From assembly GCA_005878485.1 (NCBI GenBank), contig VBMG01000040.1, positions 1-50,975 of the forward strand: a stretch of 50,975 bases of DNA. Reading direction: 5' to 3'. The notes beneath the pieces were generated by a model. It was not told the origin of the DNA, did no database searches, and worked only from the letters and a program-made list of their open reading frames with translations. Of the stretch, positions 1,094-20,000 are shown piece by piece; position 1 is the first letter of the stretch; each line of letters begins with the position of its first letter. This DNA comes from Methanobacteriota archaeon (lineage in GTDB: Archaea > Thermoplasmatota > Thermoplasmata > RBG-16-68-12). The translations under genes and the position numbers were made by a program.

Positions 1094-2350
1094 TCACCAG
1101 GGAACCCGGAGCCGACCGATGGGTCCCGCGACGGCAATCGAACTTGCCGACGGCAGGAAGTATCTTCGCGCGAGGTTCCGGATGCGCTCCTCGGTCAGCT
1201 CGCCGACGATGTCCGCGTACCGCTCGAGGAAGTCCATCCCGAGCCCGTGGTACTCCATGCGGTGAAGTTCCCCGGCGACCTCGGCATTCCGCTCGAGGGA
1301 CACGACGAGAGAGCCGGTCTGATTCTCCTTCCCATCCCGGACCTCCTCCAAGGAGAAGGGCTCCGTCCGCAGGCGATCCATCTCCGCGCGGATCGATTCG
1401 ATCGCCTTCCCCAGATTCGAGGGGTTCACGCCCGCCGAGATCGTCCACATGCCGCCCGCGGTCCGCGCGTCGAGGTTCGAGAACGCGTAGTAGGCGAGGC
1501 CTTGTTCATCCCGGAGGTTCCTCCCGAGGCGGCCGTACAGGCCGATCCGCCCGAACAGGAGGTTCGCCAGGTTCAGCGCATAGTAGTCCTCGTGACGCCG
1601 GGGGACGCCCGGCGCGCCGATCACGATGTCAACCTGGGACTTGTGGGGCATCGGAATCCGGACGGACCCGGGTCGGTGGGGACGCGGGGGCGGGATCGCC
1701 TCGGCGCCGCCATCGCCGCGGAGGCGGGAGAGCGGCGTCGCAATTCCCTCGTCGATCAGGGCGCGATCGACGTCCCCCGTGACCGCGAGGATGAGCCCCT
1801 CCGGGCCGACGTGGGCCTCGTGGAACGAGACGATGTCCCCCCGCCGGACCCGTTGGACGCGGGATGGATCGCCTTTGGGCTCCCGGCCGTACGGATGGTC
1901 CTTCGGGAAGACGAGCCGGGACACCTCCCGGACGGCGCGGTGGTGCGTGTCGTCCGCTTCGATGCGGAGGTCGTTCTGCAGCTCCGCGCGGATCCGCTCG
2001 ACTTCCTTCGATGGGAACGCCGGCTCGGAGAGGCAATCGACGAGAATCCGGACCGTTTCCGCCGCCGTCTCGCGGGTACACCGCCCTTGGAAGGACAGGA
2101 CCTCGTCCCCGTTCCGGAACTCGAGGGTCGCGCCGATCCCCTCGAGGCGATCCGCGAGCTTCGCGGCGCCCATCCGGCGCGTCCCGCTCAGCAACAACCG
2201 CGACGTGAACTCGGCCAGGCCGAACTCGCTCCCCTCCGCCGCGACCCCGGCGGGCACCGTGCCCCGGAACGCGATGAACGGGTTCGAGGGCAGCGCGACC
2301 GACACGAGGATCGCGCCGTTCTCCAGGACGGTCCGGTCCGGGAGGTTCAC
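1094..2350 (-). CDS. M16 (pitrilysin) family peptidase, non-catalytic subunit-like (no HxxEH)
   Basis: The track ORF 1094..2824 has an R/G/P-rich N-terminal extension that overlaps the upstream gene. An in-frame GTG at 2350 forms a GTGA start/stop overlap with the upstream M16 gene (TGA 2347-2349). From VNLPDRTVLENGAILV the sequence has M16 architecture, but GLAEFTSRLL sits where HxxEH would be. Confidence 0.75.
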   Translation of the reverse strand: MNLPDRTVLENGAILVSVALPSNPFIAFRGTVPAGVAAEGSEFGLAEFTSRLLLSGTRRMGAAKLADRLEGIGATLEFRNGDEVLSFQGRCTRETAAETVRILVDCLSEPAFPSKEVERIRAELQNDLRIEADDTHHRAVREVSRLVFPKDHPYGREPKGDPSRVQRVRRGDIVSFHEAHVGPEGLILAVTGDVDRALIDEGIATPLSRLRGDGGAEAIPPPRPHRPGSVRIPMPHKSQVDIVIGAPGVPRRHEDYYALNLANLLFGRIGLYGRLGRNLRDEQGLAYYAFSNLDARTAGGMWTISAGVNPSNLGKAIESIRAEMDRLRTEPFSLEEVRDGKENQTGSLVVSLERNAEVAGELHRMEYHGLGMDFLERYADIVGELTEERIRNLARRYFLPSASSIAVAGPIGRLRVPW

Positions 2351-3708
2351 CCGGGGACCTCCTGCGCATGGAATCGGACGACGGTCCGGTGCTCCTCGAC
2401 GAGATACCGGCGGGCGGCCGCGCGGACCTGCTCCGGCCGGACTTTCTCGACCTTCGCGAGGAGCGCCTCCGCGAAGTCCCACGCGCCGAGGCCTTCGCCC
2501 GCGCTGAGCAACATGCCTTGGAACGTGACGCCGTCTTGCTCGTACCGCGCCCAGGCGCGGACCTGTTGGTGGGCCCGAGCGAGTTCCGACTTCGGCGGGG
2601 GCGCCCGTTTCAGCTTCTCGATTTCCCGGTCGAGCACGGCCTCGACACGGTCCAGAGAGGCGCCGGGCGCCAGCGTCGCGTTCGCGATGAGCAAGGAGGG
2701 GTCCAGCTTCGACTCGAGGCGGACGCCGACGTCCGTCGCGAGCTTCGCCTCGACGAGGGCCCGATACAGTCGGTTCGATCGGGGCCGCCAGTCTCCCGCC
2801 GCGAACGGGACGAATCCCCGCCACCCTCCGAGGACGGTCGACAGGAGGACGAGCGCGGGCGTGTCCTCGTGGGCCGCGCCGGGGATGTGCCAGCCGACCG
2901 AGAGGAGGTCCGCGGGACCGGGACGTTCGAGGTCGCTCCGCCGCTCGCCGCGTTGCTCCGGCTCCGCGAGGCGAAGGGGGTCCGGCGGCGCCTCCGGCTG
3001 CAGGCGGCCGAACGCCTCGCGGATGTGCTGCATCGCGACGGCCACGTCGAACCCGCCGACGAGGATCAGGGACGCGTTGTTCGGGGCGTAGAACCGGAGG
3101 TAGTGGCGGTACAGCGGGTCGCGGGCGAGGGTCGCGAGGTCCTGCTTATACCCGATCGCCGTCCAATGGTACGGGTGGACGTGGAACGCGAGCCCCCACA
3201 GCTCCTCCTCGACCGCGAAGTCGGGCTGGTTCTCCGCGCCTTCCCGTTCGCTGATCACGACCGTGCGTTCCGCCTCGACCTCTTTCGGGTCGAACGCCGC
3301 GTTGCGCATCCGCTCCGACTCGATCATCAGGGCCGTGTCCAGCGCGGTCGCGGGGATCGTCTCGAAGTACATCGTGTAGTCCGTGTCGGTGAAGGCGTTC
3401 ATCTTGCCGCCGAGGCGGGAGATCAGCTTGTCGATGTCCCCCTTCGCGAGCTTGCCGCCGCCCTTGAACAGCATGTGCTCGACCCAATGGGTGGAGCCGG
3501 TCATGCCGGGGACCTCGTTCCGCGAGCCGATCCGGTAGACGACCCACGTGGACAGGGCCTTCGTGTCCGGGATCGGCCGGAGGATCACCTTCAGGCCGTT
3601 GCCCAGGGTCTCCACGTGGGTGGGCATCTGAGGCGCGGGAACGCGGGCGCGCGATATCAAGTTGCCCGACGCGAACGGAGACGGAAATTCGCCGAGAGGC
3701 TTGCGCAT
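2347..3708 (-). CDS. M16 (pitrilysin) family zinc peptidase, catalytic subunit-like
   Basis: 453-aa ORF. Inverted zincin motif HWVEH within GSTHWVEHMLFKG, and the N-terminal LGNGLKVIL start typical of M16. An alternative ATG at 3627 (MPTHVETLGNG) is equally plausible. Confidence 0.85.
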   Translation of the reverse strand: MRKPLGEFPSPFASGNLISRARVPAPQMPTHVETLGNGLKVILRPIPDTKALSTWVVYRIGSRNEVPGMTGSTHWVEHMLFKGGGKLAKGDIDKLISRLGGKMNAFTDTDYTMYFETIPATALDTALMIESERMRNAAFDPKEVEAERTVVISEREGAENQPDFAVEEELWGLAFHVHPYHWTAIGYKQDLATLARDPLYRHYLRFYAPNNASLILVGGFDVAVAMQHIREAFGRLQPEAPPDPLRLAEPEQRGERRSDLERPGPADLLSVGWHIPGAAHEDTPALVLLSTVLGGWRGFVPFAAGDWRPRSNRLYRALVEAKLATDVGVRLESKLDPSLLIANATLAPGASLDRVEAVLDREIEKLKRAPPPKSELARAHQQVRAWARYEQDGVTFQGMLLSAGEGLGAWDFAEALLAKVEKVRPEQVRAAARRYLVEEHRTVVRFHAQEVPG

Positions 3709-4732
3709 TTATGGGGGACCCGCCGAAACTGTGGTACTCAATTGGAAATGGCCGGGGGACCTTTTGCATTCAGCGCCTTCATTCGTTGGCGAAGGTTCTC
3801 CCGGAACGCTATCACTTTGCGGGGATGGCGCGCAAATTCGCTCGCTGCCCGACCCTGGCGAGTGGCCTTCTTGTGGTCGACCAACGCCAGCATGACCATC
3901 GCGTGACGCCGCTTCACAATAAGATACGGCAGGACCGACAAGAGAAGACGTTCGACCATGCCATCACTCCAAATCAGTTGGTAGGCGTGCCGCCATCCAA
4001 CTCTTGCTGAGGGCTGGTTTGTCATGATTCCTCCAAACCGCCCGCGAATCTCTTCCAGCACGGGCTTGTCGGTGTTCCCGATTGATATTCTTGCACGGTA
4101 CTGAGAGTTACCGTTTGAATCGGTAGACTTTGGAATCATCAAACAACCCTCCGCATCGATGAACCCGGCGAGGTATTTTGATAAGCGCCGCCTCCTGTCT
4201 AGGCGCGCGTTGGGGGACGTGCCACTTCCACGCACAGCCTTGCCCTTCATATTCAACCGGGCTAGACGGTTGTGGAATCGCGCTCGGAATTCCAGTTCTG
4301 CCTCGGACAGAGGAAGGAGGTGACCGCCCGAGTCCCGACTCCGACGGCAAGCTTGGAGGTGTGCATTGAATTCGAGCAGCGCCACGGCTTGTTTCGACTT
4401 CACGCGCAAGTGGCGAACCAGCATCTTCAGCAACTTGGCAGCGGCAGCATTCGTCCAGATCAGCGCGTAGCTCGGTTTCCACGCCGGACGCCTCTGTCCA
4501 ACCGCAGAGAGGGAGCCGCCCCACCTACGCCGAATGGAGACCAGGACGCGACGATCCGTGTTATAGGCGCACAACCGCAGGCAATATTCGGGTGAACGGC
4601 GCCTCCGACGAATCCGCGCCAGTGCCAGGTAGCCTTCGCCGTCCATGAAACCGGCGAGGTACTCGATCGAAACCAACTACAATACACGGAGTGGAGGGGT
4701 AACTAGCTTCGGGCGAGGGATAGGTGAAAGTG
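3709..4732 (-). mobile_element. Putative homing-endonuclease insertion filling the gap between the Pup-like ORF and the M16 genes
   Basis: The LAGLIDADG ORF plus short flanks occupies exactly the space between the TAG stop of the small ORF (4733) and the ATG of the M16 gene (3708). The segment is more AT-rich than its neighbours. I saw no terminal repeats, intron or intein context. Confidence 0.4.
3738..4676 (-). CDS. Free-standing double-motif LAGLIDADG homing endonuclease
   Basis: 312-aa ORF with two LAGLIDADG motifs about 165 aa apart: YLAGFMDGEGY at the N-terminus and YLAGFIDAEGC mid-protein. TTG start at 4676, TGA stop. GC is visibly lower than in the flanking genes. Confidence 0.85.
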   Translation of the reverse strand: MVSIEYLAGFMDGEGYLALARIRRRRRSPEYCLRLCAYNTDRRVLVSIRRRWGGSLSAVGQRRPAWKPSYALIWTNAAAAKLLKMLVRHLRVKSKQAVALLEFNAHLQACRRSRDSGGHLLPLSEAELEFRARFHNRLARLNMKGKAVRGSGTSPNARLDRRRRLSKYLAGFIDAEGCLMIPKSTDSNGNSQYRARISIGNTDKPVLEEIRGRFGGIMTNQPSARVGWRHAYQLIWSDGMVERLLLSVLPYLIVKRRHAMVMLALVDHKKATRQGRAASEFARHPRKVIAFRENLRQRMKALNAKGPPAISN

Positions 4733-4909
4733 CTATGCCCGTCGATCTCCTCCCTGACCCTTCTGGGCTTTAAATTTGGCACTTTCCAGGTCGAGCTCGA
4801 AATCTTCTTCCTTGACTTCGCCAGGGGTGAAGACCTTGCCGGCTTCAAATTCGAGCTTCTTTTCCTGCTTCTTTCGCTTCTTCGGCCGTTCCTCAACTTG
4901 CTGTTGCAT
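4733..4909 (-). CDS. Candidate Pup/UBact-like small protein modifier (58 aa)
   Basis: ATG at 4909 is preceded by GGAGG 7 nt upstream and overlaps the ligase stop codon by 17 nt (translational coupling). Sequence: MQQQVEERPKKRKKQEKKLEFEAGKVFTPGEVKEEDFELDLESAKFKAQKGQGGDRRA. It is charged, predicted disordered, and has an EDF...QKGQ tail resembling the Pup C-terminus. It sits immediately after a PafA/Dop homologue, as pup follows dop in bacteria. The track ORF starts at 4933. Confidence 0.45.
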   Translation of the reverse strand: MQQQVEERPKKRKKQEKKLEFEAGKVFTPGEVKEEDFELDLESAKFKAQKGQGGDRRA

Positions 4910-6188
4910 AGGGTGCCTCCAGTTTTGTGGCATAGGGATCTAGGAGATCGATACGCCTCCGCGTTCCGTCGTTCACGATCAATACTGACCAATCGATCAT
5001 CTCGATATTGAAGGTGTCGCACAGCTCCCGACGAAGGTGTGCTCGGCTGTCATCGGGCGGCTCCTGAATCGCACGCTTGATCGCCTCGTCGTCCGTGATC
5101 CGGTCGAGCAGCCCGGCGCGCTGCCGCTTGTAGAACAAGGATCGATCCATCCCGATTTCCGAGTACTGCTTGCAGGCCATCATCTCGACGTCGGGCCCGG
5201 CCTTCTTCTCGAGCGCCTCTTGGATCGCGTAGTACCGGTCGAGCCACTCGACCCGACGTGCCGCGTCCTTCGATCGGCGGCCTTCGAGGTCGTCCAGGAC
5301 CTCCTCGAGCGTGCGCAGCGCCCGGTGTTCCCACTCGTCCTCGACGAGGGTCTCGATCTTCTCGAGGTAGTACCGCTGCACGTCGATCGGAGAGACGATA
5401 GACCCGTCCTCGAGCTCGACCTTCCACTGCTCGGGATTCCGGATCTCCACGTTGCGCCAGACGTCCTTCACGGGATCCTTGATCCGCGGCACGTCGGCGA
5501 GGGCGTCGGCCTCCATGAGCCGCAGGATCGCGGACGTCGTGAAGTGTCGGAGCATGATCGCGGTCTCGTTCATCAGGGCGTCCCCGACGATCACGTGGAG
5601 GCGGCGCCAGAGGCGTCCGTCCGCGTGCGGCTCGTCCCGCGTGTTCAACAAGCCGGTATCGTGCATCGTCTCCCCGCTGATGACCTGCGACGTGAGGAAG
5701 GCCATCGGCGACAGGACGTACTTCCCGCGGACGATGTCCCCCGCCCCCGTATACACGAACCGCGTCGCGAGGTGCGGCACGAGTTCGCGGATGAACCGGG
5801 CCGGGAACGCGACGTCCCGGGACACGCAGTAGTTCTCGTGGGACCCGTACGATGTGCCGTCCGGGGAGGTGTTGTTCTTGAACGCGTGGATCTTCGTCTC
5901 CCCGGTGTACTTCTCCTCCATGATCCGTCGGAGCCAGTCGAGGATCTTCTCCCCGGCCTTCTCCCAGATCACGACATCGTGAAAGTTCGTCGTCTCCGCG
6001 GTGCTGACCTCGAAATGCCCGACGTCGTAGTAGACGCGCGAGCCGTTCGTGATGAACTCGCCGGCGAGGTGCAGGTCGGAGTCCCGCAGGAGGTCGAGCG
6101 CCATCATGTGCGGATCGAACCCCATCGTGCCCATCTTGCGGCAGTACAGCGTGTACTCGTGCTCGGTCCCCTGGACCATCTTCTTCAT
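4893..6188 (-). CDS. Pup-ligase/deamidase family protein (PafA/Dop homologue)
   Basis: 431-aa ORF carrying the family motifs GTEHEY (N-terminal GxExE), YYDVGHFEVSTAE, YGSHENY and LNTRDEPHADGRLWRRLHVIVGDALMNE. The ATG at 6188 lies 3 nt after the TGA of the upstream ATPase. Confidence 0.85.
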   Translation of the reverse strand: MKKMVQGTEHEYTLYCRKMGTMGFDPHMMALDLLRDSDLHLAGEFITNGSRVYYDVGHFEVSTAETTNFHDVVIWEKAGEKILDWLRRIMEEKYTGETKIHAFKNNTSPDGTSYGSHENYCVSRDVAFPARFIRELVPHLATRFVYTGAGDIVRGKYVLSPMAFLTSQVISGETMHDTGLLNTRDEPHADGRLWRRLHVIVGDALMNETAIMLRHFTTSAILRLMEADALADVPRIKDPVKDVWRNVEIRNPEQWKVELEDGSIVSPIDVQRYYLEKIETLVEDEWEHRALRTLEEVLDDLEGRRSKDAARRVEWLDRYYAIQEALEKKAGPDVEMMACKQYSEIGMDRSLFYKRQRAGLLDRITDDEAIKRAIQEPPDDSRAHLRRELCDTFNIEMIDWSVLIVNDGTRRRIDLLDPYATKLEAPYATAS

Positions 6189-6191
6189 GCG

Positions 6192-7751
6192 TCACCCGAC
6201 CATCGGGTCCGCACCGGTCCGGAAGACCTCCCGCTGGCGCTTCTCGTAGACGTACATCTCCGTGATCGCGTGCTCCTTACTCTCCTCGTCGATCGCCATC
6301 TCGAGGTCCTTGAGGGTGAGGCCCTCCTTCTTCCGGTCGGCCTTCTTGAGGGCGATGACCCGCTTCACGAAGTTCTTCTTCGCGGTCGTGACGATCGCCT
6401 CGATGATCGCGCCGGAGATGATGTCCTTCCGCTTCACGGTCTTGATCGCCTCTTTTGCTTCCGTGTCGAGCTTGACCTTGACCCACTTGTTTTCGCCGTA
6501 CAGCTCATCGAGCACGTACCGGCGGAGCGCCTCGATCGCTTCCTTGTGCCCACCGTACGTCTCTTCGAGGCTCGCGGCCGCAGGGAGGTCCTCGCTCAGG
6601 TAGATGCGGAGGACCTCCTCCGCCGCCTTCCGGTCCGGGCGCGGGATGTCGATGATTTCGTCGAACCGGCCGGGTCGGAGCAGCGCCGGGTCCACGAGGT
6701 CCGCCCGGTTCGTCGCCCCGATCACGAAGACATCGTGCAGTTCGACGAGTCCGTCCATCTCGCTGAGGATCTGGGCGATGATGTTCTTGTGGACGCCGGA
6801 CGTGTCCATCATGCCGCGGACCGTGAAGAGGGCCTCGATCTCATCGAAGAACACGATGCTCGGCTTCTTCTCGTGCGCCTGGCGGAAGATCTCCTTGATG
6901 ATCCGCTCGCTCTCCCCGACCCACTTCGACAGGACGTCCGCGATGCTGACGTTGAAGAACGTCATGTCGTTCTCCGTCGCGATCGCTTTCACGAGCAACG
7001 TCTTCCCACACCCGGGCGGGCCGTACAAGAGGATGCCGCGCGGCGCCTCGAGGGAGATCTGTTGGAACAGTTTCGCCTCTTGGTACGGGAGCACGACGAC
7101 GTCCTTGATCCGCTCGATCGCCTCCGCGAGCCCCCCGATCTGCGCGTACTTCACGTTCGGCTTCTCCCCCAGGAGGAGCGACTTGACCTCGAGGTTCGGG
7201 AGGACATCGAGCACCTCCATCGTCGGCGGGAGGACGCCGATCTGGAATCCGGGCTTCAGCTTCTTGTAGACGTTCTTGTCGCAATCGATCAGGCGTTTCT
7301 CCATGTCCCCTTCGACCGAGATGACGAGCTTGCCGTCCAGCATGTCGACGACTTTCGCGATGACGCCTTCGTTCCGGACCGCGCTGCCCTCGACGATCGC
7401 GTACGTCTGCGGGTGGACCCAGACGTACTGGCCTACGCCGAGCTGGGACTTGTCCACGAGCCCGGTTGAGACCTTCAGCAGTTCCGTCGCCCGCGCCACG
7501 ACCACTTGGTTTCCGTCGAGGTCGGGCCCCTCCTTGCGAACGACGTACGCGTAGAGGAGCGGAGGCTGTTTGATCTTGTTGAACTTGTCCTCGTAGGCCT
7601 TCAGCCGGTACTCCCGCTCCTCAATTTCGTACCGGAACGAGTGCAGGTCCCGTTCGTACTGGCGACGGAGCCGGTCCATCTTCTCTTCGAACTCGTCCCG
7701 AACTTCTTCCGCCGACTTGGACACCTTCCCGTCGCTTTCGTCGCTTACCAT
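6192..7751 (-). CDS. ARC/Mpa-like AAA+ ATPase (N-terminal coiled coil, double-OB-sized linker, single AAA module)
   Basis: Start chosen at ATG 7751 (MVSDESDGK), with GGTGAT 6 nt upstream; the track ORF extends to 7871. It has a coiled-coil N-terminus, about 150 aa before the AAA module, Walker A GPPGCGKT, Walker B IVFFDEIE and ATNRADLVDPALLRPGRFD. The Cys-containing P-loop and FFDE resemble Mpa/ARC more than PAN. The C-terminus ...RTGADPMVG lacks a penultimate Tyr. Confidence 0.85.
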   Translation of the reverse strand: MVSDESDGKVSKSAEEVRDEFEEKMDRLRRQYERDLHSFRYEIEEREYRLKAYEDKFNKIKQPPLLYAYVVRKEGPDLDGNQVVVARATELLKVSTGLVDKSQLGVGQYVWVHPQTYAIVEGSAVRNEGVIAKVVDMLDGKLVISVEGDMEKRLIDCDKNVYKKLKPGFQIGVLPPTMEVLDVLPNLEVKSLLLGEKPNVKYAQIGGLAEAIERIKDVVVLPYQEAKLFQQISLEAPRGILLYGPPGCGKTLLVKAIATENDMTFFNVSIADVLSKWVGESERIIKEIFRQAHEKKPSIVFFDEIEALFTVRGMMDTSGVHKNIIAQILSEMDGLVELHDVFVIGATNRADLVDPALLRPGRFDEIIDIPRPDRKAAEEVLRIYLSEDLPAAASLEETYGGHKEAIEALRRYVLDELYGENKWVKVKLDTEAKEAIKTVKRKDIISGAIIEAIVTTAKKNFVKRVIALKKADRKKEGLTLKDLEMAIDEESKEHAITEMYVYEKRQREVFRTGADPMVG

Positions 7752-7875
7752 TTGTGAATCACCGCGCGCGTCCGCCCACGGTTCGACCGGAACTCGAGGG
7801 CATCCGCTCTGTGGACGCGTGTCTGTGGAACAAGAGACTGCCTCGTCCCATCCCTTGTTAGAAAGTGGCATCCCG

Positions 7876-8124: not shown

Positions 8125-9273
8125 TCACCGGATTCCGTGAATGGGGAACACGAGCCGCCGGAGTTCCTCGACCGTCCGCTTGACCTGGCGTGGGACGTGC
8201 GCGTCTTCGTCGACCTTGGTGTGGTCCCGCAGCGCCTTTTCCGCGGGGACGGTCCCGACGAGTCGGTTCCCCTCTCGTAACCAATTCGTGGGCAGCGCAT
8301 CGTCCAAGCGGAGGCCCACCATCGTGGCGAAGAGGACCGTCCATACGCGGGGGACGGCGGTGACGTCATATCCGCCTCCGCCCACCGCAATCCACCGGCC
8401 CCCGCAGAGTTCCGATGAGAGCCCGTCCAGGATCCGTCCCACGGCCTCGTAGGTCTCCGTGGTCAACATTAGGTGCGTGAGCGGATCGAGATAGTGTGCG
8501 TCGGCTCCGAGTTGGCTGCAGATGAGGTCCGGCCGGAAGGCCCGTGCGATCGGCGGAACGACCTCTTGAAACGCGTAGAGATACGAGACGTCGCGAGTAT
8601 AGGGCGGGAGCGGCACGTTCACGGCGAAGCCTTTCCCATCGCCGGCGCCGATTTCGTCCGTGAAACCGGTCCCCGGGAAGAGGTAGTGGCCGTCCTCGTG
8701 CAGGGAAATCGTGAGGACGCGGGGGTCCTCATAGAAAACCGCCTGGACCCCATCCCCGTGGTGCGCGTCGATGTCGACATACAAAATCCGCCGGACCTGG
8801 TGCTGATCGAGCAGGGACCGGATCCCGATTGCGATGTCGTTGAAGATGCAGAACCCGGATGCACGGTCGGGCATCGCATGGTGGAACCCGCCTCCGAGGT
8901 TGAAGGCCCGTAGCCGGCGTCCCGACGCCACCTCGGAACACGCCCGCAGGGTTGCACCCACTTGGAGGGCCGACGCCTCGTACATCCCTGCAAAGACGGG
9001 ATCGTCGACCGTCCCGAGACCATGGACTTCCGAGGAGCCGTGCGGATCCGCCCCGAGCTCCCGCACGGTGGCCACGTACTCCGGCCGATGAACGGTGAGG
9101 ATGTCCGCCTCGGCCGCGGGACTCGGCCGGAGCTCCTCGGCGCCTCGATCACCGAGGAGCCCGTACCCCGCGATGAGGTCGCGAGCGAGCTTCACCCGGA
9201 TCTCTCGCAACGCGTGGGCGGGGCCAAAATCGTACTTCAGAAAATCATCGTGGTAGAGGAGCGCGGGTCGCAC
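8125..9273 (-). CDS. Histone deacetylase / acetoin utilisation (AcuC) family deacetylase
   Basis: HDAC motifs GGGFHHA, DIDAHHGDG and GGGGY are present. Start set at in-frame GTG 9273, which lies 31 nt downstream of a CTTTAAG box (leaderless geometry). The track ORF to 10170 overlaps the neighbouring gene and is R-rich. Confidence 0.85.
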   Translation of the reverse strand: MRPALLYHDDFLKYDFGPAHALREIRVKLARDLIAGYGLLGDRGAEELRPSPAAEADILTVHRPEYVATVRELGADPHGSSEVHGLGTVDDPVFAGMYEASALQVGATLRACSEVASGRRLRAFNLGGGFHHAMPDRASGFCIFNDIAIGIRSLLDQHQVRRILYVDIDAHHGDGVQAVFYEDPRVLTISLHEDGHYLFPGTGFTDEIGAGDGKGFAVNVPLPPYTRDVSYLYAFQEVVPPIARAFRPDLICSQLGADAHYLDPLTHLMLTTETYEAVGRILDGLSSELCGGRWIAVGGGGYDVTAVPRVWTVLFATMVGLRLDDALPTNWLREGNRLVGTVPAEKALRDHTKVDEDAHVPRQVKRTVEELRRLVFPIHGIR

Positions 9274-9297
9274 ACCTCTCTGAAAGGGGGACGGAGA

Positions 9298-9304
9298 CTT
9301 AAAG
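9298..9304 (-). promoter_or_regulatory. TATA-like box (CTTTAAG) 31 nt upstream of the HDAC GTG start
   Basis: The spacing matches the CTTATCC-type boxes found upstream of other genes in this window. Confidence 0.4.
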
Positions 9305-9350
9305 GCGGCTCGACGTGTCTCACTAATATCCAGGCGGTCTGATACAAATC

Positions 9351-12300
9351 TCAACGGGCAGAAACCGCCCGCACGGGACGCGTCGCGGCGGCGACCGCGT
9401 AGCCGCCCTGGATCAGCTTCTTGATGTACGGGGCCAAGACCCTCGCGAGGCCCATGTCTCCATCCCAATCCTCGAGCTGGTCCCATTGGTGGTCCTCCAT
9501 GTCGCGGATGCAGCGTTCGATCTGCTCCGTCCACGACTCCGTGCCGTCCCCTTCGATTCGCGCCGCGAGGACGAGCCATTTCCCTCGCCCGATTAGGATA
9601 TGCATCTGGCCGACTGTCATCTCGTTCAGCTCGCCCAGGTCGTCGCCCCGTAAGGCGTCCTTGACGAACGCCTGCACGGCGGTGAGCATGCCGCTCAGGA
9701 TGTCCGTGTCCACGTCCGGGCGGAGCCGGCGAGTCTCGTGTTTGATCAGGAGCCCGTCTTTGGCATTGAGCAAGAACACGTCCTCGATGATCGCGTCCTG
9801 TGACCTGGAGGCGGCCTTGACGGACGGCCTCGAGGGTTCCCTCGAACGGCGACGCACGAGGAAGAACAGCGTTCCGGCGACCCCCGCGGCGGCAATCACG
9901 AAGAGCCACCAATAGCTCGCGAGGAATCCTTGGGCGGTCGCGAACTGGAATGTCTTCGACTGGACCATCGTGTTCCCGGCCAGGTCCCGCGCGCTCGTAT
10001 CGACGACCACGAAGTAGGTCGTCCCAGACTGGAGCTCCCGGGTCGGCACGAACGTCACGCTGCGGGAGTCGGCGCTCCACTGGAAGGACCCATCGACCGC
10101 CGGCGAAATCGAGAACGCTTGCTCCACCGAGGCGCGGTCCATCGCTTCCGTGAATGTAATCCGGATCCACGGAGTCGTGTTCGTGTCCGCGCCAACCGGC
10201 CGCACGTCCGTCACGGACGGTGGCGTGATGTCGATCATGGTCCAGGTATCATTGCCGGCGGGAGCGGGCTCGACGTTGCCCGCGCGGTCCGTCGCGATCG
10301 AGCGGAACGCGACCACGCCCTGCCCGCTCGCCGTGAAGGTACCCGTGGTCGCGGCCGTGCCGACGAGCCAATTCGTCCAGCCCGCGCCGACATCGTACAG
10401 GACCGTGTACGTCGCGATGTCCGTGGTGCCGGCCGCCTGGCTCCAGGAAACCGCGAACTGAAGCCGGTTCTCGAAGGCCGGCAAGGAGGTCATGATCGAA
10501 TTGGGCGGGGTCACGTCCACGATCGTCCACGAGTCGTTTCCGGCAGGCGGCGCCTCGACGTTGCCCGCGCGGTCCGTCGCGATCGAGCGGAATTCATAAG
10601 TGTGGCCGTCCTGTCCCGTGAACGTGGCGGATGTCCCCGTCGACACAAGCCAATCCGACCAGCTTCCGCCATTGTCGCGCACCACAACCCGGTAGCTCGC
10701 GATGTCCAGGGTGTCGAACTGGGGTCCCCACGATACCATAAATCCGAGGGACGTCTCGTACGTCGGCAGCGGGAGCGTGTGGGAGAACGGGGCGATCGTG
10801 TCGACGATCGTCCAGGTGTCGTTTCCAGTCGGTGCGACCTCGACGTTGCCCGCGCGGTCCGTCGCGATCGACCGGAACGCGATGGGGCCCTGGTTGCCGC
10901 TGTTGAACGTCGCCGAGGTGGCGGTCGTCCCGACGAGCCAGTTCGTCCACCCCGTGCCCAAGTTGTATTGAATCGTATATGTGGCGATGTCCGTCACGCC
11001 CGCGTCCGGAGCCCACGAGACGAGGAACGAAGCCGAATTCTGATATGCGCTGAGCGCGTTCACGTGGGACCCCGGCCGGACCGTGTCGACCGTCGTCCAC
11101 GTATTGTTCGCGAACGGTCCGGACTGCACGTTGCCGGCGAGGTCGTCCGCCGTTGTCGCGAACTCGTAAACGCCGTCTGCGGAGGCTGTGAAGGTGAATT
11201 GGCCGAGGTTTCCCGCCGGTTGTGTCGCGTATGGAGACCAACCACCGCCCCCGGTCCGCACCCACAACGTGATGCTCCTCAGGCCGGTCCCATTGCCGTC
11301 CGAGGCCGTGTAACCAATCGTGAACGTTTGCGTGTTCTCGTACGTCGGGAGCGAGGTCGCCGCGGAGGTCGGCGCATCGCGGTCCACCATGACGAACGGC
11401 TCCGTGTGACTCGTGCTCATGTCGACGAACCGCGGATCACTCGCGAACGAGTAACTCGAGTACGTCACGGTGACCCGCGTCACGTTGTCGATCGGCAAAG
11501 GAGAGTCGATGTACACCCGGTCCGTCACGAGAATCCACGGTTGGATGCCACTCGGGGACGACCGATCCCAGATGGGTGATCCGTTGTCCTCGACGAGGAT
11601 GTGCGCCCCGGCGACCGGCGTCAGACCGTTCGGCCAGAGCGCGTCAACCTCGAGGAAGTTTTGGACCGTCAAATTGCCGGCGGCCATCACGGCCAATTTC
11701 GTGAACGGCGTGTTCACCGCGAAGCCTTCCGTGTAGTTGTCCACGAAGAACTCGTAGGATCCGACGGACGACAGGGATGCGTTTTCGACCGTGAAGCGGA
11801 TGGTCAAGGACCGATTGCCGACGAGGTAGTACCCATTCGCGTAGGACGCTTGCACGGGCAGACCCGCGCCGGGGGCTCCTTTCGCCACCCCCGAAATCGT
11901 GTCGCCGAGGGAAACGCCGTACCTCACGAGTCCGGCGACGATGCCGCTCGCGTCCCCACCGCGCCCCCCATTGGTTGGACCGAGGGAATCTCCTCCGCGT
12001 CCCCCTTGCAGCGTGTAGACCTGGTTCGTGTCGAGGGTCGGGGCGAGGTACAGTGCGGCGATCCCCCAAGCGCTCCCTCCATTCCCGCCGAACTTGCTTC
12101 CGATTCCCCCTACGCCACCCGTGACCGTCTGGATCAAGTTGAAGCTCATTGCCGTCGCGTTGAATCGACCGTCGTTGTAACCGATCGAGAGGACGCCCGT
12201 CGCATTTCCTCCGTAACCACCATGGGCGCCGCGGCCACCGTCTCCGCCGGTCAACGTGTCCATCGTGCTCGATCCTACACTCGCAGACCCGACGACGGAG

Positions 12301-13679
12301 GCTAGCAGGAACGCCGTCGCGCCGCCGCCCGTACCGCCGTTTCCGCCTCCGCCCGCGGTCACGCCCCCATTTCCCCCGAGGCCGCCGTGAAGGATTGAGA
12401 CGGTATTCCCGCCCGCATCCGCATTTTCAGCCGTGATGAAGAAGAGACCGTCCGCGTCGCCGCCGGCGCCGCCGTTGCCGCTCGAGGTGCTTCCCGTCGC
12501 TCCGGCCCCTCCGGCGCCTCCCGTTACCCCGTTGATCCCGTTCGTGTGTAGCTGTGTGAAGCCCGTCGTAACGGCCGCTTCGATCGCCGCGGCCGTGCCG
12601 CCGCTTCCGCCCGAACCCCCGTTCGTTGTCGTCGCGCCGCCGCCGCCGCTTCCGCCGGCTCCGCCCTGAAGATTCGTGATGGTATTGCCTGAGATGTACA
12701 CCCCCGAAGTCATCGCGACGACGATGCCCGCGACGGAACCGCCGTTGCCGCCACGGCCTCCCGTCCCGCCGGGATTCGTTTGGCCGTCGCCACCCCGCCC
12801 GCCGATCGCGGTGTCGACCGTGTTCGTCGTGATTGACGCCGATGGCGCGGCGTTCACGTAGATACCGAGGGCGAAGGCGCCGTCACGACCCGGGGCTCCG
12901 GGCGACAAGCCGTTGCCTCCGTTCGCTCCGCGGACGCCGGTGATCGTGTTCCCATCGATCGCCGCAGTGGCACCCGCGTTGACCAGGATTCCCACCGCGA
13001 AAACGCCGCTCACGTTCGTGATCGTGTTGCCCGAAATCGTCGGCGCGCTGGGTTGTTCGACCTGGATACCGAGACCCGTGCCGTTAATCGCGTTGCCGGC
13101 AATCTGAGCGTCGGAGGCGTTCGCGTAGATCCCGAGACTTGAAGCCCGTTTGATGACATTGCTCGTGACGAAGGCCGTGGACCGCACGAGGACGAAACCG
13201 GCCCCCGCTTGGAGGATCGTGTTGCTCGAGAGCGAAAGCGAGCTCGCCGTCGCGGTAACTGCGCGATCGACCCGATCGAAAGTAGACCATGAGATCGAGC
13301 CGGAGGAGCTCGCATTGAACTGGATGCCGCCCCACGTGATCGGCGAGCCCGTGTTGTTCGCGGTAAAGATGATCGCCCTGGTGGCGGTCCCGTCGGCGAC
13401 GAGCGAGCCCTCGATGAAGAGGTGGACTCCTGGATCGAACTTGACCGTCGTCCCGGGAAGGATGGTGAGCGTCGCAGGAGCGCGGACGGTGACATGGTAC
13501 GTTGCGACGTATATCGTATCGCTGATGCCCCACGTCGTATCCGTGGTGATGAGCCCCCGCACGTACGTGGTTGCGGTCGCCGTTGGCGCCGTCCATAGGA
13601 ACGCGGCGGTCGCGGAAGCAAGCAGCACCCAGACGATCATGAAAGTTCGGCCCAAGGTCGTCGTGGGGTGGGCACGCAT
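9351..13679 (-). CDS. Large single-pass surface protein: signal/anchor, parallel beta-helix repeats, Gly-rich repeats, 4 tandem Ig-like domains, SbsA-Ig-like domain, TM, cytoplasmic roadblock/longin-like module
   Basis: N-terminal hydrophobic segment FMIVWVLLASATAAFLW. PbH1-like repeats (IAGNAINGTGLGI, ISGNTITNV, IDGNTITGV). Periodic GGxGGxG blocks. Four ~95-aa repeats each ending in SIATDRAGNVE. TM YWWLFVIAAAGVAGTLFFLV followed by RRRSR. The C-terminal ~150 aa begins VFLLNAKDGLLIKH. A TATA-like ATAATATAG at 13744-13752 sits too close to GTG 13739, so ATG 13679 (GGAG upstream) is preferred. Confidence 0.8.
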   Translation of the reverse strand: MRAHPTTTLGRTFMIVWVLLASATAAFLWTAPTATATTYVRGLITTDTTWGISDTIYVATYHVTVRAPATLTILPGTTVKFDPGVHLFIEGSLVADGTATRAIIFTANNTGSPITWGGIQFNASSSGSISWSTFDRVDRAVTATASSLSLSSNTILQAGAGFVLVRSTAFVTSNVIKRASSLGIYANASDAQIAGNAINGTGLGIQVEQPSAPTISGNTITNVSGVFAVGILVNAGATAAIDGNTITGVRGANGGNGLSPGAPGRDGAFALGIYVNAAPSASITTNTVDTAIGGRGGDGQTNPGGTGGRGGNGGSVAGIVVAMTSGVYISGNTITNLQGGAGGSGGGGATTTNGGSGGSGGTAAAIEAAVTTGFTQLHTNGINGVTGGAGGAGATGSTSSGNGGAGGDADGLFFITAENADAGGNTVSILHGGLGGNGGVTAGGGGNGGTGGGATAFLLASVVGSASVGSSTMDTLTGGDGGRGAHGGYGGNATGVLSIGYNDGRFNATAMSFNLIQTVTGGVGGIGSKFGGNGGSAWGIAALYLAPTLDTNQVYTLQGGRGGDSLGPTNGGRGGDASGIVAGLVRYGVSLGDTISGVAKGAPGAGLPVQASYANGYYLVGNRSLTIRFTVENASLSSVGSYEFFVDNYTEGFAVNTPFTKLAVMAAGNLTVQNFLEVDALWPNGLTPVAGAHILVEDNGSPIWDRSSPSGIQPWILVTDRVYIDSPLPIDNVTRVTVTYSSYSFASDPRFVDMSTSHTEPFVMVDRDAPTSAATSLPTYENTQTFTIGYTASDGNGTGLRSITLWVRTGGGGWSPYATQPAGNLGQFTFTASADGVYEFATTADDLAGNVQSGPFANNTWTTVDTVRPGSHVNALSAYQNSASFLVSWAPDAGVTDIATYTIQYNLGTGWTNWLVGTTATSATFNSGNQGPIAFRSIATDRAGNVEVAPTGNDTWTIVDTIAPFSHTLPLPTYETSLGFMVSWGPQFDTLDIASYRVVVRDNGGSWSDWLVSTGTSATFTGQDGHTYEFRSIATDRAGNVEAPPAGNDSWTIVDVTPPNSIMTSLPAFENRLQFAVSWSQAAGTTDIATYTVLYDVGAGWTNWLVGTAATTGTFTASGQGVVAFRSIATDRAGNVEPAPAGNDTWTMIDITPPSVTDVRPVGADTNTTPWIRITFTEAMDRASVEQAFSISPAVDGSFQWSADSRSVTFVPTRELQSGTTYFVVVDTSARDLAGNTMVQSKTFQFATAQGFLASYWWLFVIAAAGVAGTLFFLVRRRSREPSRPSVKAASRSQDAIIEDVFLLNAKDGLLIKHETRRLRPDVDTDILSGMLTAVQAFVKDALRGDDLGELNEMTVGQMHILIGRGKWLVLAARIEGDGTESWTEQIERCIRDMEDHQWDQLEDWDGDMGLARVLAPYIKKLIQGGYAVAAATRPVRAVSAR
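10233..11384 (-). repeat. Four tandem coding repeats of ~285 bp (95-aa Ig-like domains)
   Basis: The core CGACGTTGCCCGCGCGGTCCGTCGCGATCGA recurs at 10271, 10556 and 10841, exactly 285 bp apart. A diverged fourth copy lies near 11120. Confidence 0.85.
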
Positions 13680-14097
13680 GTGTGACACGGACTCCGCAGC
13701 GAGGGTTTGCCCCGCCCTAGTCTCGCCCCGTTTCCACACGACGCTATATTATCCAAAGGATGCCGTTATCGCAGGTGATATCGAATTCGTGTCGGAATAA
13801 CGGCCCGAGCAGAGGGTGACGCGACAACCTTCAAGGTGTCGTGAAGGCTTGCGCGGTCGGTGGCCTCTCGCGCTCGATGCAATCTTCTCCGCGTCCTCCA
13901 TCGCCATCGTTGGCGCATCCCGACACCGCGGAAAAATCGGATCGACCTGAACCCGGTTATCGCGCTCGACGAGGACCTCGGCTATCGCACTGTCGACGCC
14001 CGGATGTCCTGGAACTCCCCGGGCCTAACCAGACGACATCGACGCCGGCCGCGCAACGCTTGTAGCCTTGGAACGCTATCCAGGGCAGGGAAGCCGC

Positions 14098-17047: not shown

Positions 17048-20000
17048 ATGAGGCCCGCGACGGCGCTGCTGCTCGTCTTCGTGCTCATCGCGACCGCTGG
17101 CCTCGCGGTGGCGGAACAGAAACTGCTGGATCCCTTCGCTGCGTTCCGCGGTCCCGATGGCTCCCTTCACATTCCCGGTTCCGCCCTAACGAACAATCTG
17201 CTCCGGGCGTTGTTCGGACCCAGGCCGGATCCGAACGCTCCGATCCGGCTCGCGGAGCGGGTGCCGTCGCCCTATCCGACCCTTGCAATCCGAATCGTCG
17301 AGATGGAATTTCCACAGCAGCCATCGTTTCGGTTTGTCCTTCGAATTCAGGATATCATTGGTTCGGTCAACCATGGCCTCAGCGCCGCCGCAAATGCGAT
17401 CACCGCGATAGGCCGCGCTGCGATCGCTGCTTTCTTCAATTTCCTGACGTCGGATGCGGCTGCCGCCGTGAACGTGGACACGACAACGGTTGCGGACGTG
17501 TTCCCTGCCGCCACCACCTGCACGACATCGCAGTCCGCGACGGCTGCGGATAACGGCGTTCTCGTGATGCTATCGGAACGTGGGACGACCACGTTCGCCT
17601 CCGTCACGTATGGATCGACAAGCCTCACCTTGGTCGCAGGCACAGCGGCGAACGGTGGGACTGTTGTACGAACGGAAATCTGGGGGTTCACGGGGACCCT
17701 TCCCGGAGGGCTTCAGACGATGACGGCGACCCTCTCGGGAGGCCAGACGGCGAAGATGAGCTGTGCGACGATCCTGCTACAGGGCGTGAGCCCGACTGGC
17801 TCGTTCATCCGGGGGACGAACAATGCCGCGAATTCGACGAACGCAAGCGTCACGCTTCTGGGGACGGTAGCGGTCGGAAATCTCGCCTTCGCCGTCGCCG
17901 TGCTCCAGCAGACCAACGGCGGGGCTCAGCCGACGGCGGTCACCGGTACAGGAGCTACGGCTACGGACCTGTACGGGGTCGCGGTCGGCCACTGCACGAC
18001 AGGGGCCTCCGCTGCATCGAACGAATGTGCCGCCGGGTCGGATATCCCGAACCCGGGCACCGCAATCACTTGGACGAACGCGGCCACGCAGTGGGTGGTC
18101 TCCGCCGTCGAGGTCGTGGCAGCTCCGCCGTGCGGAAACGGGAGCGGATTGTGCTACCGGATTGGGAACGGCGGCGCCTGGAATAGCGCCTCCAACTGGT
18201 CGAACTCCTCCGGAGGAGCCCCGTGCAGCTGCACTCCCGCGGCGACCGATGTCGCCGTCTTCAACGCGAATCCGACTGGAACGGTTACGCTGGCCGCAGC
18301 GACGACAATCGGCGGCATCGACATGACCGGATTCACGGGGACGCTCGACACGACCGCAGCGAACAGTTGGGCACTAACCGTGAACGGCAACTTCCTAGTC
18401 CAAGGGACATTCCTGGCTGAGAATTCGGCAGTGTCCGTCAGCGGCAACGTCGGCATCGTCTCCGCGGGAACGATCGTCAATCTCGGCGGATCGACGTGGA
18501 CCGTGAATGGGACCTGGACGAACGCTTCGACCTCATCGTCCTGGGTTGCGGGGACGAGCACGGTGACGATTGCCGATGCCGGAAATGCGACCCTAACCTT
18601 CGCCGCACTCACCGGGGGGACGAACGAGTTCAATAACATGACTCTCGACTCGATCGCAATTGGCGGTGCCGTGTATACGATGGCCATCAATGCGGTCCGC
18701 ATCGGAGCGGTCTTGACCGTCCGAAATTCAACGGCCGGCGCCACCGGCCCAACGATTTTGGACACATCGGGCTCCAACCTCGCGGTTACCGCTGGCAGTC
18801 TCGCCCTTTCCCTGCTCGGGAGTGTATCGGCAAACGGGTCTACGGTAACGATCAATGGGAACGTGACTGTCGGGGCGGCGGGCGCCTACTCGACCATGGG
18901 GACCTCCGTGTGGACCGTCACGGGCACGTGGACGAACGCCTCGACGTCCGCATCCTGGAGTGCCGGGACGAGCACGGTCACGTTCACCAGCGCGACGGGC
19001 GGGACAATGACGTTCGCGGGTTCGAACCTCGCCGGGAGCGAGTTCTACAACGTCGCATTTGCGTCTTCGGCGGCCTCCGCACAGACGTTCACGATGTCGA
19101 CGCGGGGATTGAATTGGGGCGGAACCCTCACCGTCTCGGATGCCTCGTCCTCGACCCAACTGGCCACGGCGAACCTGTCCCTAACCGGCGGAGGCCTGGT
19201 CATCGGCAACGGGGGCATCTTGACGGCCAACGCTTCGTCGGCATCCGTCTCGAGTGTGTCGATGACGGGAGGCACGAGCGGCACAATCACCTTGACCACG
19301 GGTACCGTCACTGACTCCGGAAACTGGGACACGAGCGGGGCCGGTTCGGTCTTCACGAAGGGGACCAGCACGGTCACGATGACGGGCGTGAGCAACATCG
19401 CGGTGCGAAATGCGAGCAACAACTTCAACAACCTGACCATCTCCACCGCCGGTGCCGTCACCCAGACGGGCCTCGTGGATGTGTCCGGGACGCTCGGTGT
19501 GAATGCGGGCGCGACCCTGGCGACCGGCACACAAACGCTCACCGTCGGCGTTCTCGCGGCAAACATGGCCGGGGGGATCACGGCGGGCCCCTCGGGCACG
19601 AAGACGATTGGGGGAAACGTGAGTATCGCCGCGGCGGGCTTCTTCAATTTCGGCGGGGCAACCTGGAATTTCAGCGGCGCCTGGACGAACGCCTCGACGA
19701 GCGCGTCGTGGGCACCGGGTACCGGGAACGTGGTGTTCCGCGATGCGGCAAGTCAGACGATGACGTTCAAAGCGTCCGGGACAGAGTTCCCGAATCTGAC
19801 GCTCGACACGACCGCCGTCGCAGGGATCACGTACACGATGGCAACGAATCCGCTCAATTCCGGAGGCACGCTCACGATCCAGAACAGCGTGGTCGGTCCC
19901 ACCGGGAACACGATCCTCACGACCGGCGCGAGCGGCCTCGGGATCACGGCGGCGGGCATCACGATTGGCATCAACGGAACGCTGACCGCGAGTTCCTCGA

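Follow-up and report, generated by a model that had tools for sequence, protein, structure and literature searches.

A small protein encoded beside a mosaic PafA/Dop-family enzyme in Thermoplasmata archaea, a candidate Pup-type tag with an internal Gln/Glu

Pupylation is regarded as a bacterial invention that is centred on Actinobacteria, with sporadic transfers. The Pup of Mycobacterium tuberculosis (Mtb) has the C-terminus …Y-V-Q-K-G-G-Q, and UBact, which is found in Nitrospirota and other Gram-negative phyla, ends in …R-[T/S]-G-[E/Q] and is encoded at a locus with proteasome subunits, Dop and PafA. To our knowledge, the only protein tags assumed for archaea are ubiquitin-fold modifiers of the SAMP/Urm1 type. 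In the Pup system, Dop deamidates and PafA ligates the reactive residue of Pup through its side chain (PMC8599861), and a GxYx tail docks the ATPase Mpa onto the 20S proteasome core (PMC6466877). Some Planctomycetes hold a single Dop/PafA homologue, which has been used as an outgroup, and a bifunctional ligase/depupylase state can be reached experimentally (PMC7947786). Here we analyse a stretch of 50,975 nucleotides (the window) from a Methanobacteriota archaeon of the Thermoplasmata order RBG-16-68-12 (GenBank assembly GCA_005878485.1, contig VBMG01000040.1), in which a small open reading frame (ORF) overlaps the end of a gene for a PafA/Dop-family enzyme and lies near that of an Mpa-like ATPase. 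Judged from the sequences, this parts list looks like that of a Pup system, but it is archaeal, has one mosaic enzyme and a candidate reactive residue that is never terminal.

The small ORF runs on the minus strand from an ATG at 4907-4909 to a TAG stop at 4733-4735. Its 58-residue product, MQQQVEERPKKRKKQEKKLEFEAGKVFTPGEVKEEDFELDLESAKFKAQKGQGGDRRA, matches exactly the one named in the original prediction, which was made from the letters of the window alone and proposed a candidate modifier whose Pup-like Gly-Gln end is buried under a C-terminal extension. The mechanical reading frame opens 8 codons earlier (ATG 4933, 66 aa). ATG 4909 is the start common to the relatives and has a GGAGG motif 6 nt upstream. 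Nearly all related loci keep GGAGG or something close to it at this spacing, also where the ligase residues encoded by the overlap differ, so the 58-residue product is likely the right one. The window itself is archaeal, of which the original prediction was unaware, and encodes GatD and GatE.

ORFs of 58 aa are commonplace in this GC-rich DNA (the first 14 kb of the window contain 83 ORFs of at least 50 aa), and the case for a real gene thus needs comparison with other genomes. With the neighbouring enzyme as query, species-representative genomes yielded 49 loci, all from Thermoplasmata-type archaeal metagenome-assembled genomes (MAGs), of which the EA_ and RBG_ series come from grassland soil and aquifer. 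The small ORF directly follows the PafA/Dop-family gene in all 47 loci that reach past the enzyme gene, and in these and the window, 48 genomes together, the stop occupies the identical codon position, be it TAG (36), TGA (10) or TAA (2). In the 40 codons outside the overlap with the enzyme gene, the ratio of nonsynonymous to synonymous substitution rates (dN/dS) is 0.08 at a dS of about 1.5, and the tail codons for K, G, G, G, D, R and R show 5164 synonymous pairwise differences against 92 nonsynonymous ones. Homologues in public protein data form 135 clusters, almost all of them 58-60 aa long, the named members of which are called "hypothetical protein [Thermoplasmata archaeon]". At the level of sequence, the occurrence in 47 of 47 loci, the shared stop position, the low dN/dS, the synonymous tail changes and the 135 clusters confirm a real, strongly constrained gene. 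A missing ORF in relatives or an unconserved C-terminal region would have spoken against the proposal of a modifier; instead the ORF is present throughout, and the tail is invariant under saturated synonymous change.

The sequence KG[Q/E]GGDRR[T/A/S] closes the protein in 114 of 120 close clusters; five of the remaining six are read-through or extended forms, and one has Met replacing the second Arg. Position 52 is Q in 70 of these clusters, E in 49 and V in one, and the 48 genomes encode Q in 14 cases and E in 34. On a neighbour-joining tree of 36 paired enzymes, at least seven switches between Q and E are required, while the neighbouring residues are invariant. Because residue 52 toggles in this way within fixed surroundings, it is the candidate reactive site. 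A position encoded as Gln or Glu depending on the species is the signature of the reactive residue of Pup, and the Gln that the original prediction had singled out is the one position of the protein that carries it. The register agrees as well: in the Mtb Pup sequence as quoted above and in the archaeal protein, an aromatic residue stands at -6 and Gly at -1 relative to Q/E. In contrast to Pup, whose Q/E is the C-terminus, the archaeal Q/E lies six residues from the end in 48 of 48 genomes and is followed by the tail in 120 of 120 close clusters. The amino acids GGDRR of this tail are invariant, with 2-6 synonymous codons in use per position. Read-through variants that are near-identical to the window protein but have a sense codon in place of the stop (P0001, P0002, P0121, P0122, P0215-P0219; source label 'src') run on for 40-60 unrelated residues (…GGDRRG/A + HF…PPP…) and were not used as evidence.

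A profile search of 1.84 billion representative proteins added 95 distant relatives, 88 of which keep the motif with the consensus A-R-[YF]-[KR]-A-x-[KH]-G-[QE]-[GA]-G-[DTNS]-R. In this wider family, the motif through the Arg is always followed by at least two further residues and by up to about 70, so that the tail after Q/E measures 6 to 77 residues in the 88 relatives. Gly at -1, Gly at +2 and Arg at +4 are nearly invariant, the residue at +1 is G or A (46:38), and the segment +1 to +4, [GA]-G-[DTNS]-R, equals the segment -6 to -1 in its conservation. No family member among the 120 close clusters and the 88 distant relatives ends at Q/E; the relative P0183 ends at KGEG and may be truncated. 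The question of whether KGQ or GG is the conserved element is thus answered with both, but a di-Gly role of GG is weakened by the G/A variation of its first residue. The idea that the tail merely buries a terminus that must be clipped free finds no support, as the tail shows the same degree of conservation as what precedes Q/E and does not vary in length among cellular genomes.

The protein has an N-terminus rich in Lys and Arg, a block LEFEAGKVF-P that does not vary, two short helices by prediction, and the Gly-rich C-terminal motif. An AlphaFold2 (AF2) model is mostly coil, with helices at 34-37 and 41-49 just before the motif (predicted local distance difference test score, pLDDT, 66.6; predicted template modelling score, pTM, 0.22), and contains no strands or beta-grasp fold, albeit at low confidence. 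With the AF2 prediction as a proxy, this check, which had been proposed together with the modifier, gave the layout of free Pup: a small, mostly disordered protein with two short helices in its C-terminal half. The strongly basic N-terminus is a difference from Pup.

The neighbouring enzyme, likewise expected from the original prediction, belongs to PF03136 (Table 1), and its gene shares 17 nt with the small ORF. It retains the motif GhExE for ATP as G7-T-E-H-E11 and the catalytic Asp, D55, which aligns with PafA D64 and Dop D94; in this respect it resembles the enzymes of the Pup system. Its scores do not favour either branch, with 251.6 bits for Dop (TIGR03688, cut-off 492.3) and 251.3 bits for PafA (TIGR03686, cut-off 551.3). 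Among solved structures, it matches Dop (PDB 4b0r, 8.9e-55) and PafA (4b0t, 2.9e-44). A search for homologues with this query was saturated by close relatives of at least 73% identity, and the AF2 model built on a shallow alignment (23 sequences, 73-100% identical) is unusable (pLDDT 46.4). NCBI already names the enzyme in archaeal MAGs, and its presence is thus visible in databases.

The positions that are diagnostic of Dop or PafA (PMC7947786, Table 1) were mapped onto the enzyme through the PDB alignments. The Dop-loop, 40-65 residues before strand beta2 (PMC8599861), is absent, since residues 1-32 correspond to Dop 1-71 and about 39 residues are missing. Besides this lack, the enzyme is PafA-like at A30, F45, D55-V-G, A64 and D399; with D55-V-G after the catalytic Asp, it lacks a counterpart of Dop His95, a residue that has to move aside from the last residue of Pup. 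It is Dop-like at L41-A42, at S62 and in an alpha-loop of Dop length with E173-T174, and like neither at Y54, G172, H176 and D177. [quoted passage not shown] As far as these alignments tell, the enzyme is neither Dop nor PafA, but a mosaic of ligase-type and depupylase-type features. No second PF03136 gene was found in the 51-kb window or within 6-10 kb on either side at the related loci, so that, at least locally, one enzyme stands in place of the Dop and PafA pair. The single Planctomycetes homologue is likewise equally related to Dop and PafA, and by this analogy the archaeal enzyme is consistent with an undifferentiated or bifunctional state. The Planctomycetes homologues differ in that they are bacterial and in that no tag is described for them in PMC7947786.

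Upstream of the ligase gene lies that of an AAA ATPase, the best NCBIfam match of which is TIGR03689 (pup_AAA, 352 bits) compared with 271 bits for PAN; the former score is below the equivalog cut-off of 504.75. The true start of the ATPase is probably Met41 at 7751. The gene order on the minus strand is HDAC-family, AAA ATPase, PF03136 ligase, small ORF, LAGLIDADG and two M16-like genes, and across the 49 loci only the set of ATPase, ligase and small ORF is invariant. As in the Pup system, a small, largely disordered protein is thus encoded beside a PF03136 enzyme and an Mpa/ARC-type ATPase. The likeness extends to UBact, another small Pup-like protein from outside the Actinobacteria, in which G-[E/Q] comes after a basic/aromatic stretch and which is encoded near genes of the Dop/PafA and Mpa-like types. 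However, UBact ends at E/Q and comes with proteasome subunits and two enzymes, whereas the archaeal motif, K-G-[Q/E]-G-G, is internal and a single PF03136 gene is present in the window.

We consider it fairly probable that these parts share a common core of function, in which the enzyme would act on the side chain of residue 52 (deamidating Gln, then phosphorylating Glu and ligating it to lysines) and the ATPase would handle the product. Tentatively, we go further and propose an archaeal Pup-type system in which the 58-residue protein serves as the tag and reacts through residue 52 while this is still internal, with the tail retained. The reading as a tag is based on the overlap of the ORF with the ligase stop, on its position after the ligase in every one of the 47 loci, and on the invariance of the three-gene set. 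The single enzyme would bind the C-terminal half of the protein with its disorder and two short helices, turn Gln52 into Glu where needed, activate the gamma-carboxylate of residue 52 with ATP and attach it to target proteins at their lysines, after which the tagged protein would be recognised and unfolded by the Mpa-like ATPase. Tagging without processing would be chemically possible because PafA and Dop act on the gamma position and the alpha-carboxylate is not needed. With only tiny residues on either side of residue 52 (Gly at -1 and +2, Gly/Ala at +1), a hairpin could enter the active site, and the x-R-R-x tail would be part of the recognition motif and not a disposable propeptide. We slightly favour such internal side-chain ligation over proteolytic exposure because the flanks are the smallest possible, the tail is fixed in cellular genomes, the conserved gene core is free of proteases and the enzyme has smaller residues at the site of the Pup terminus.

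Several points weigh against this proposal. We infer the covalent conjugation, residue 52 as its site, the retention of the tail and the delivery to a protease from sequence; the modifier of the original prediction holds up as a strong candidate, a conserved protein with translational coupling to a PafA/Dop-family enzyme near an Mpa-like ATPase, while its conjugation is deduced. Every characterised Pup-type tag that we know of reacts at the chain end, and Q/E at P1 with G/A at P1' resembles a protease site. Sequence homology to Pup or UBact was not detectable. The window protein has no match in Pfam or NCBIfam, including the Pup families PF05639 and TIGR03687; 80 diverse family members gave no Pup or UBact match in Pfam and NCBIfam at E-values up to 10; and hhalign assigned a probability of 0.1% to the alignment of the family profile with Mtb Pup. 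A profile search against all PDB chains likewise found no homologue of the small protein, and PHROG and PADLOC have no family for it or for the enzyme. In PafA and Dop, the C-terminal domain closes off one side of the active site (PMC8599861). Tails as long as 77 residues, as in viral relatives, would be hard to fit into an active site. The ATPase ends in DPMVG (6192-6206, minus strand), which is invariant in the 31 loci examined and has no GxYx/HbYX motif or penultimate Tyr; its partner may for this reason differ from the canonical 20S alpha-ring pocket. Finally, unlike in the Pup system, no proteasome genes adjoin the module, and none lie within 10 kb on either side in a deeper clade (L062/L063; enzyme 66% identical).

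The more distant family members are not located beside a ligase gene. Diverged homologues (P0177, P0133, P0141, P0180, P0139, P0144, P0130, P0171) were found on virus-like contigs with no ligase nearby (L051, L053-L061, L065). Virus-like contigs of 64-93 kb carry genes for PCNA, a DNA methylase, RlaP and radical-SAM proteins, together with a copy of the small protein that ends in KGQGGDRRV. On one contig, the small gene directly precedes ORFs of 517, 170 and 328 aa, the last of which matches a major head protein family; another encodes Phage_tube_2 and a giant fibre-like protein, and others MazG or UDG. Some tails of distant relatives are Cys-rich with CxxC…CxC patterns. One divergent stand-alone copy (P0186, L064 872-1075, …RFRARKGEAGNRRSVGLRKRSDFSQYYF) is located on a cellular Thermoplasmata contig between dehydrogenase genes, far from a ligase. 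A scan of IMG/VR with the KGQAGTR subgroup gave no confirmed contig with the family, and tblastn with two viral-type members against 50,697 deposited phage records gave no match. Some eukaryotic viruses carry their own ubiquitin genes. By analogy, we read the copies on virus-like contigs as viral copies or mimics of a host factor, a role less suited to the precursor peptide of a metabolic product than to a tag or regulator, and they suggest a virus-host conflict around the pathway. Taken to its full extent, the proposal would be that these Thermoplasmata run the first Pup-type system in Archaea, in which one mosaic enzyme deamidates and ligates a mid-chain Gln/Glu in a chemistry that uses no free chain end, and that archaeal tailed viruses carry diverged tags, some with long or Cys-rich tails, to hijack or jam it; we regard this combination as rather unlikely to hold in all its parts.

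The tail could instead be a propeptide. A protease would cut between residue 52 and Gly53 and expose …A-Q-K-G-[Q/E]-COOH, after which deamidation and ligation would proceed as for Pup and UBact, all known forms of which end in G-[Q/E]. The clipped register, with an aromatic residue at -6, Gly at -1 and Q/E at 0, would equal that of Pup, and the small residues at +1 and +2 together with the conserved Arg at +4 would fit a cleavage-site motif. The free length of the tail past +6 in the wider family is reminiscent of ubiquitin precursors. Candidates for the protease are a housekeeping enzyme or, where present, the downstream M16 pair, which looks active and follows the ORF in the clade of the window, where the ligase is at least 72% identical. 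However, the M16 genes are missing from the deeper clade, which keeps ATPase, ligase and small ORF; no protease belongs to the conserved core in comparison with L062/L063, and none co-occurs universally. One would not expect a peptide that is thrown away to show the fixed length and invariance of the tail in cellular genomes, processing is not known from any Pup system, and the enzyme has lost the Arg that contacts the terminal residue of Pup in PafA (PMC8599861). We consider the propeptide somewhat unlikely.

If the small protein is not a tag, it could be a substrate or regulator of the enzyme-ATPase pair. Options include an amidation/deamidation switch at residue 52, a link to a small amine or to a lysine of its own, as in the precursor of a peptide natural product or of a cofactor trimmed by M16, and an ATPase adaptor. 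The undetectable Pup homology would agree with this, as would an internal Q/E, which occurs in precursor peptides, the weak similarity of the M16 peptidases to the maturation peptidases PqqF and YfmH/YfmF, and the stand-alone and viral copies without an adjoining ligase. Yet a proteasome-type unfoldase with coiled coil and oligonucleotide/oligosaccharide-binding (OB) domain at every locus fits tagging and not peptide maturation, for which the conserved core offers no transporter, radical-SAM or other maturation gene; again, the M16 genes are not universal. Strong constraint acts on the whole protein and not only on a leader, and the virus-borne copies are easier to understand as mimics of a host tag. 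A role other than tagging thus seems improbable to us.

The invariant GG in the cellular clade and the use of di-Gly tags (SAMPs) by archaea could point to a ubiquitin-like modifier, cut after Gly54 to give …K-G-Q-G-G-COOH and conjugated through the alpha-carboxylate of the terminal Gly. Ubiquitin and SAMP precursors also encode their reactive residue upstream of extra C-terminal residues, and viruses carry copies of them. They differ in their beta-grasp fold, in the E1 adenylation of the terminal Gly, in their other enzymes and in extensions that are variable, whereas that of the archaeal protein is invariant in cellular genomes. No strands are predicted here, GG is not terminal, the first Gly is Ala in 38 of the 88 distant relatives, and no E1-like or JAMM gene is found among the genes examined around the locus, nor an E1-like one in the conserved neighbourhood. 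As the linked enzyme is of the glutamine-synthetase-like PafA/Dop type and the Q/E toggle would stay unexplained, this is a very improbable solution. A chance ORF, or a conservation that serves the DNA and not a protein product, such as that of a target site for the homing endonuclease downstream, might be suspected from the many spurious ORFs of the same size and from the LAGLIDADG gene 57 nt downstream, but is ruled out, with next to no residual probability, by third codon positions that vary freely while the amino acids are fixed (dN/dS 0.08), by the conserved Shine-Dalgarno motif, by equal conservation at loci without the endonuclease and by distant homologues in unrelated genomic contexts.

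Full-text literature searches found no paper on Pup-type tagging in archaea, and such a system goes unmentioned in a study of genomes from the host order (RBG-16-68-12, "Ca. Yaplasmales"). With a conserved module of ATPase, PafA/Dop enzyme and small protein throughout an archaeal order, Pup-type tagging would reach into a second domain of life. A reaction at an internal Glu, if true, would alter the principle that protein tags are attached by an end of their chain and would provide a new handle for enzymatic protein labelling, for which PafA already serves in proximity tagging. The single mosaic enzyme would be a natural example of the undifferentiated ligase/depupylase state, which has so far only been engineered (PMC7947786).

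Table 1. Features at the small-ORF locus, in window coordinates
Feature	Position	Strand	Remarks
Small ORF, candidate Pup-like tag	4733..4909	minus	58 aa; no Pfam, NCBIfam, PHROG or PADLOC family
C-terminal motif K50-G-Q52-G-G-D-R-R-A58	4736..4762	minus	Q52 codon 4754-4756, proposed reactive residue; GGDRRA, conserved tail
GGAGG Shine-Dalgarno-like motif	4916..4920	minus	6 nt 5' of ATG, inside 3' end of ligase gene
PafA/Dop-family enzyme, 431 aa	4893..6188	minus	PF03136 Pup_ligase 1.8e-87, 294.6 bits vs cut-off 25
AAA+ ATPase, Mpa/ARC type (coiled coil, OB domain, AAA)	6192..7871	minus	PF00004 + PF16450 Prot_ATP_ID_OB_C
M16 zinc peptidase, HWVEH motif	2347..3708	minus	PF00675 + PF05193
Second M16-like ORF	about 1094-2350	minus	pair, a possible, non-universal processing protease
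LAGLIDADG homing-endonuclease gene, double motif	3738-4676	minus	starts about 57 nt past small-ORF stop
HDAC-family deacylase gene	8125-10170	minus	N-terminal extension of about 300 residues in window copy

Some of the other genes around the module vary between loci (Table 1). About 28 of 45 related loci (e.g. L001 7514-8440) have a LAGLIDADG gene at the place that it takes in the window, and even close relatives differ in its presence. Its copies share only 41-56% identity where the flanking genes of the genomes compared share about 90%. Only its first codons are retained in L004 and L049, and a CACTTTCRC box after the small-ORF stop is conserved only where the gene is present. By its sequence and distribution, it looks like a free-standing selfish endonuclease that homes beside a highly conserved gene. 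Its insertion was considered as the creator of the tail and rejected, as the same tail is found at loci without the endonuclease. The M16 pair was considered as an obligatory processing enzyme, a role weakened by its absence in the deeper clade. Downstream of the module, that clade has a DUF2080-like ORF, a GNAT acetyltransferase gene and fatty-acid genes.

The gene for the HDAC-family deacylase keeps its syntenic place beside the module in all clades (L062 391-5852 and 10398-10835 were also noted), and the deeper clade has two acetyl-CoA synthetase genes and the GNAT acetyltransferase gene on the flanks of the module. This hints at a lysine-acylation theme beside the putative lysine-tagging system. 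Elsewhere in the window, a 1462-residue surface-type protein with NosD, Big_5 and fn3 domains is encoded at 9351-13739 on the minus strand, and an ORF of 3848 residues at 17048-28594 on the plus strand has no Pfam match at an E-value of 1e-5 or better.

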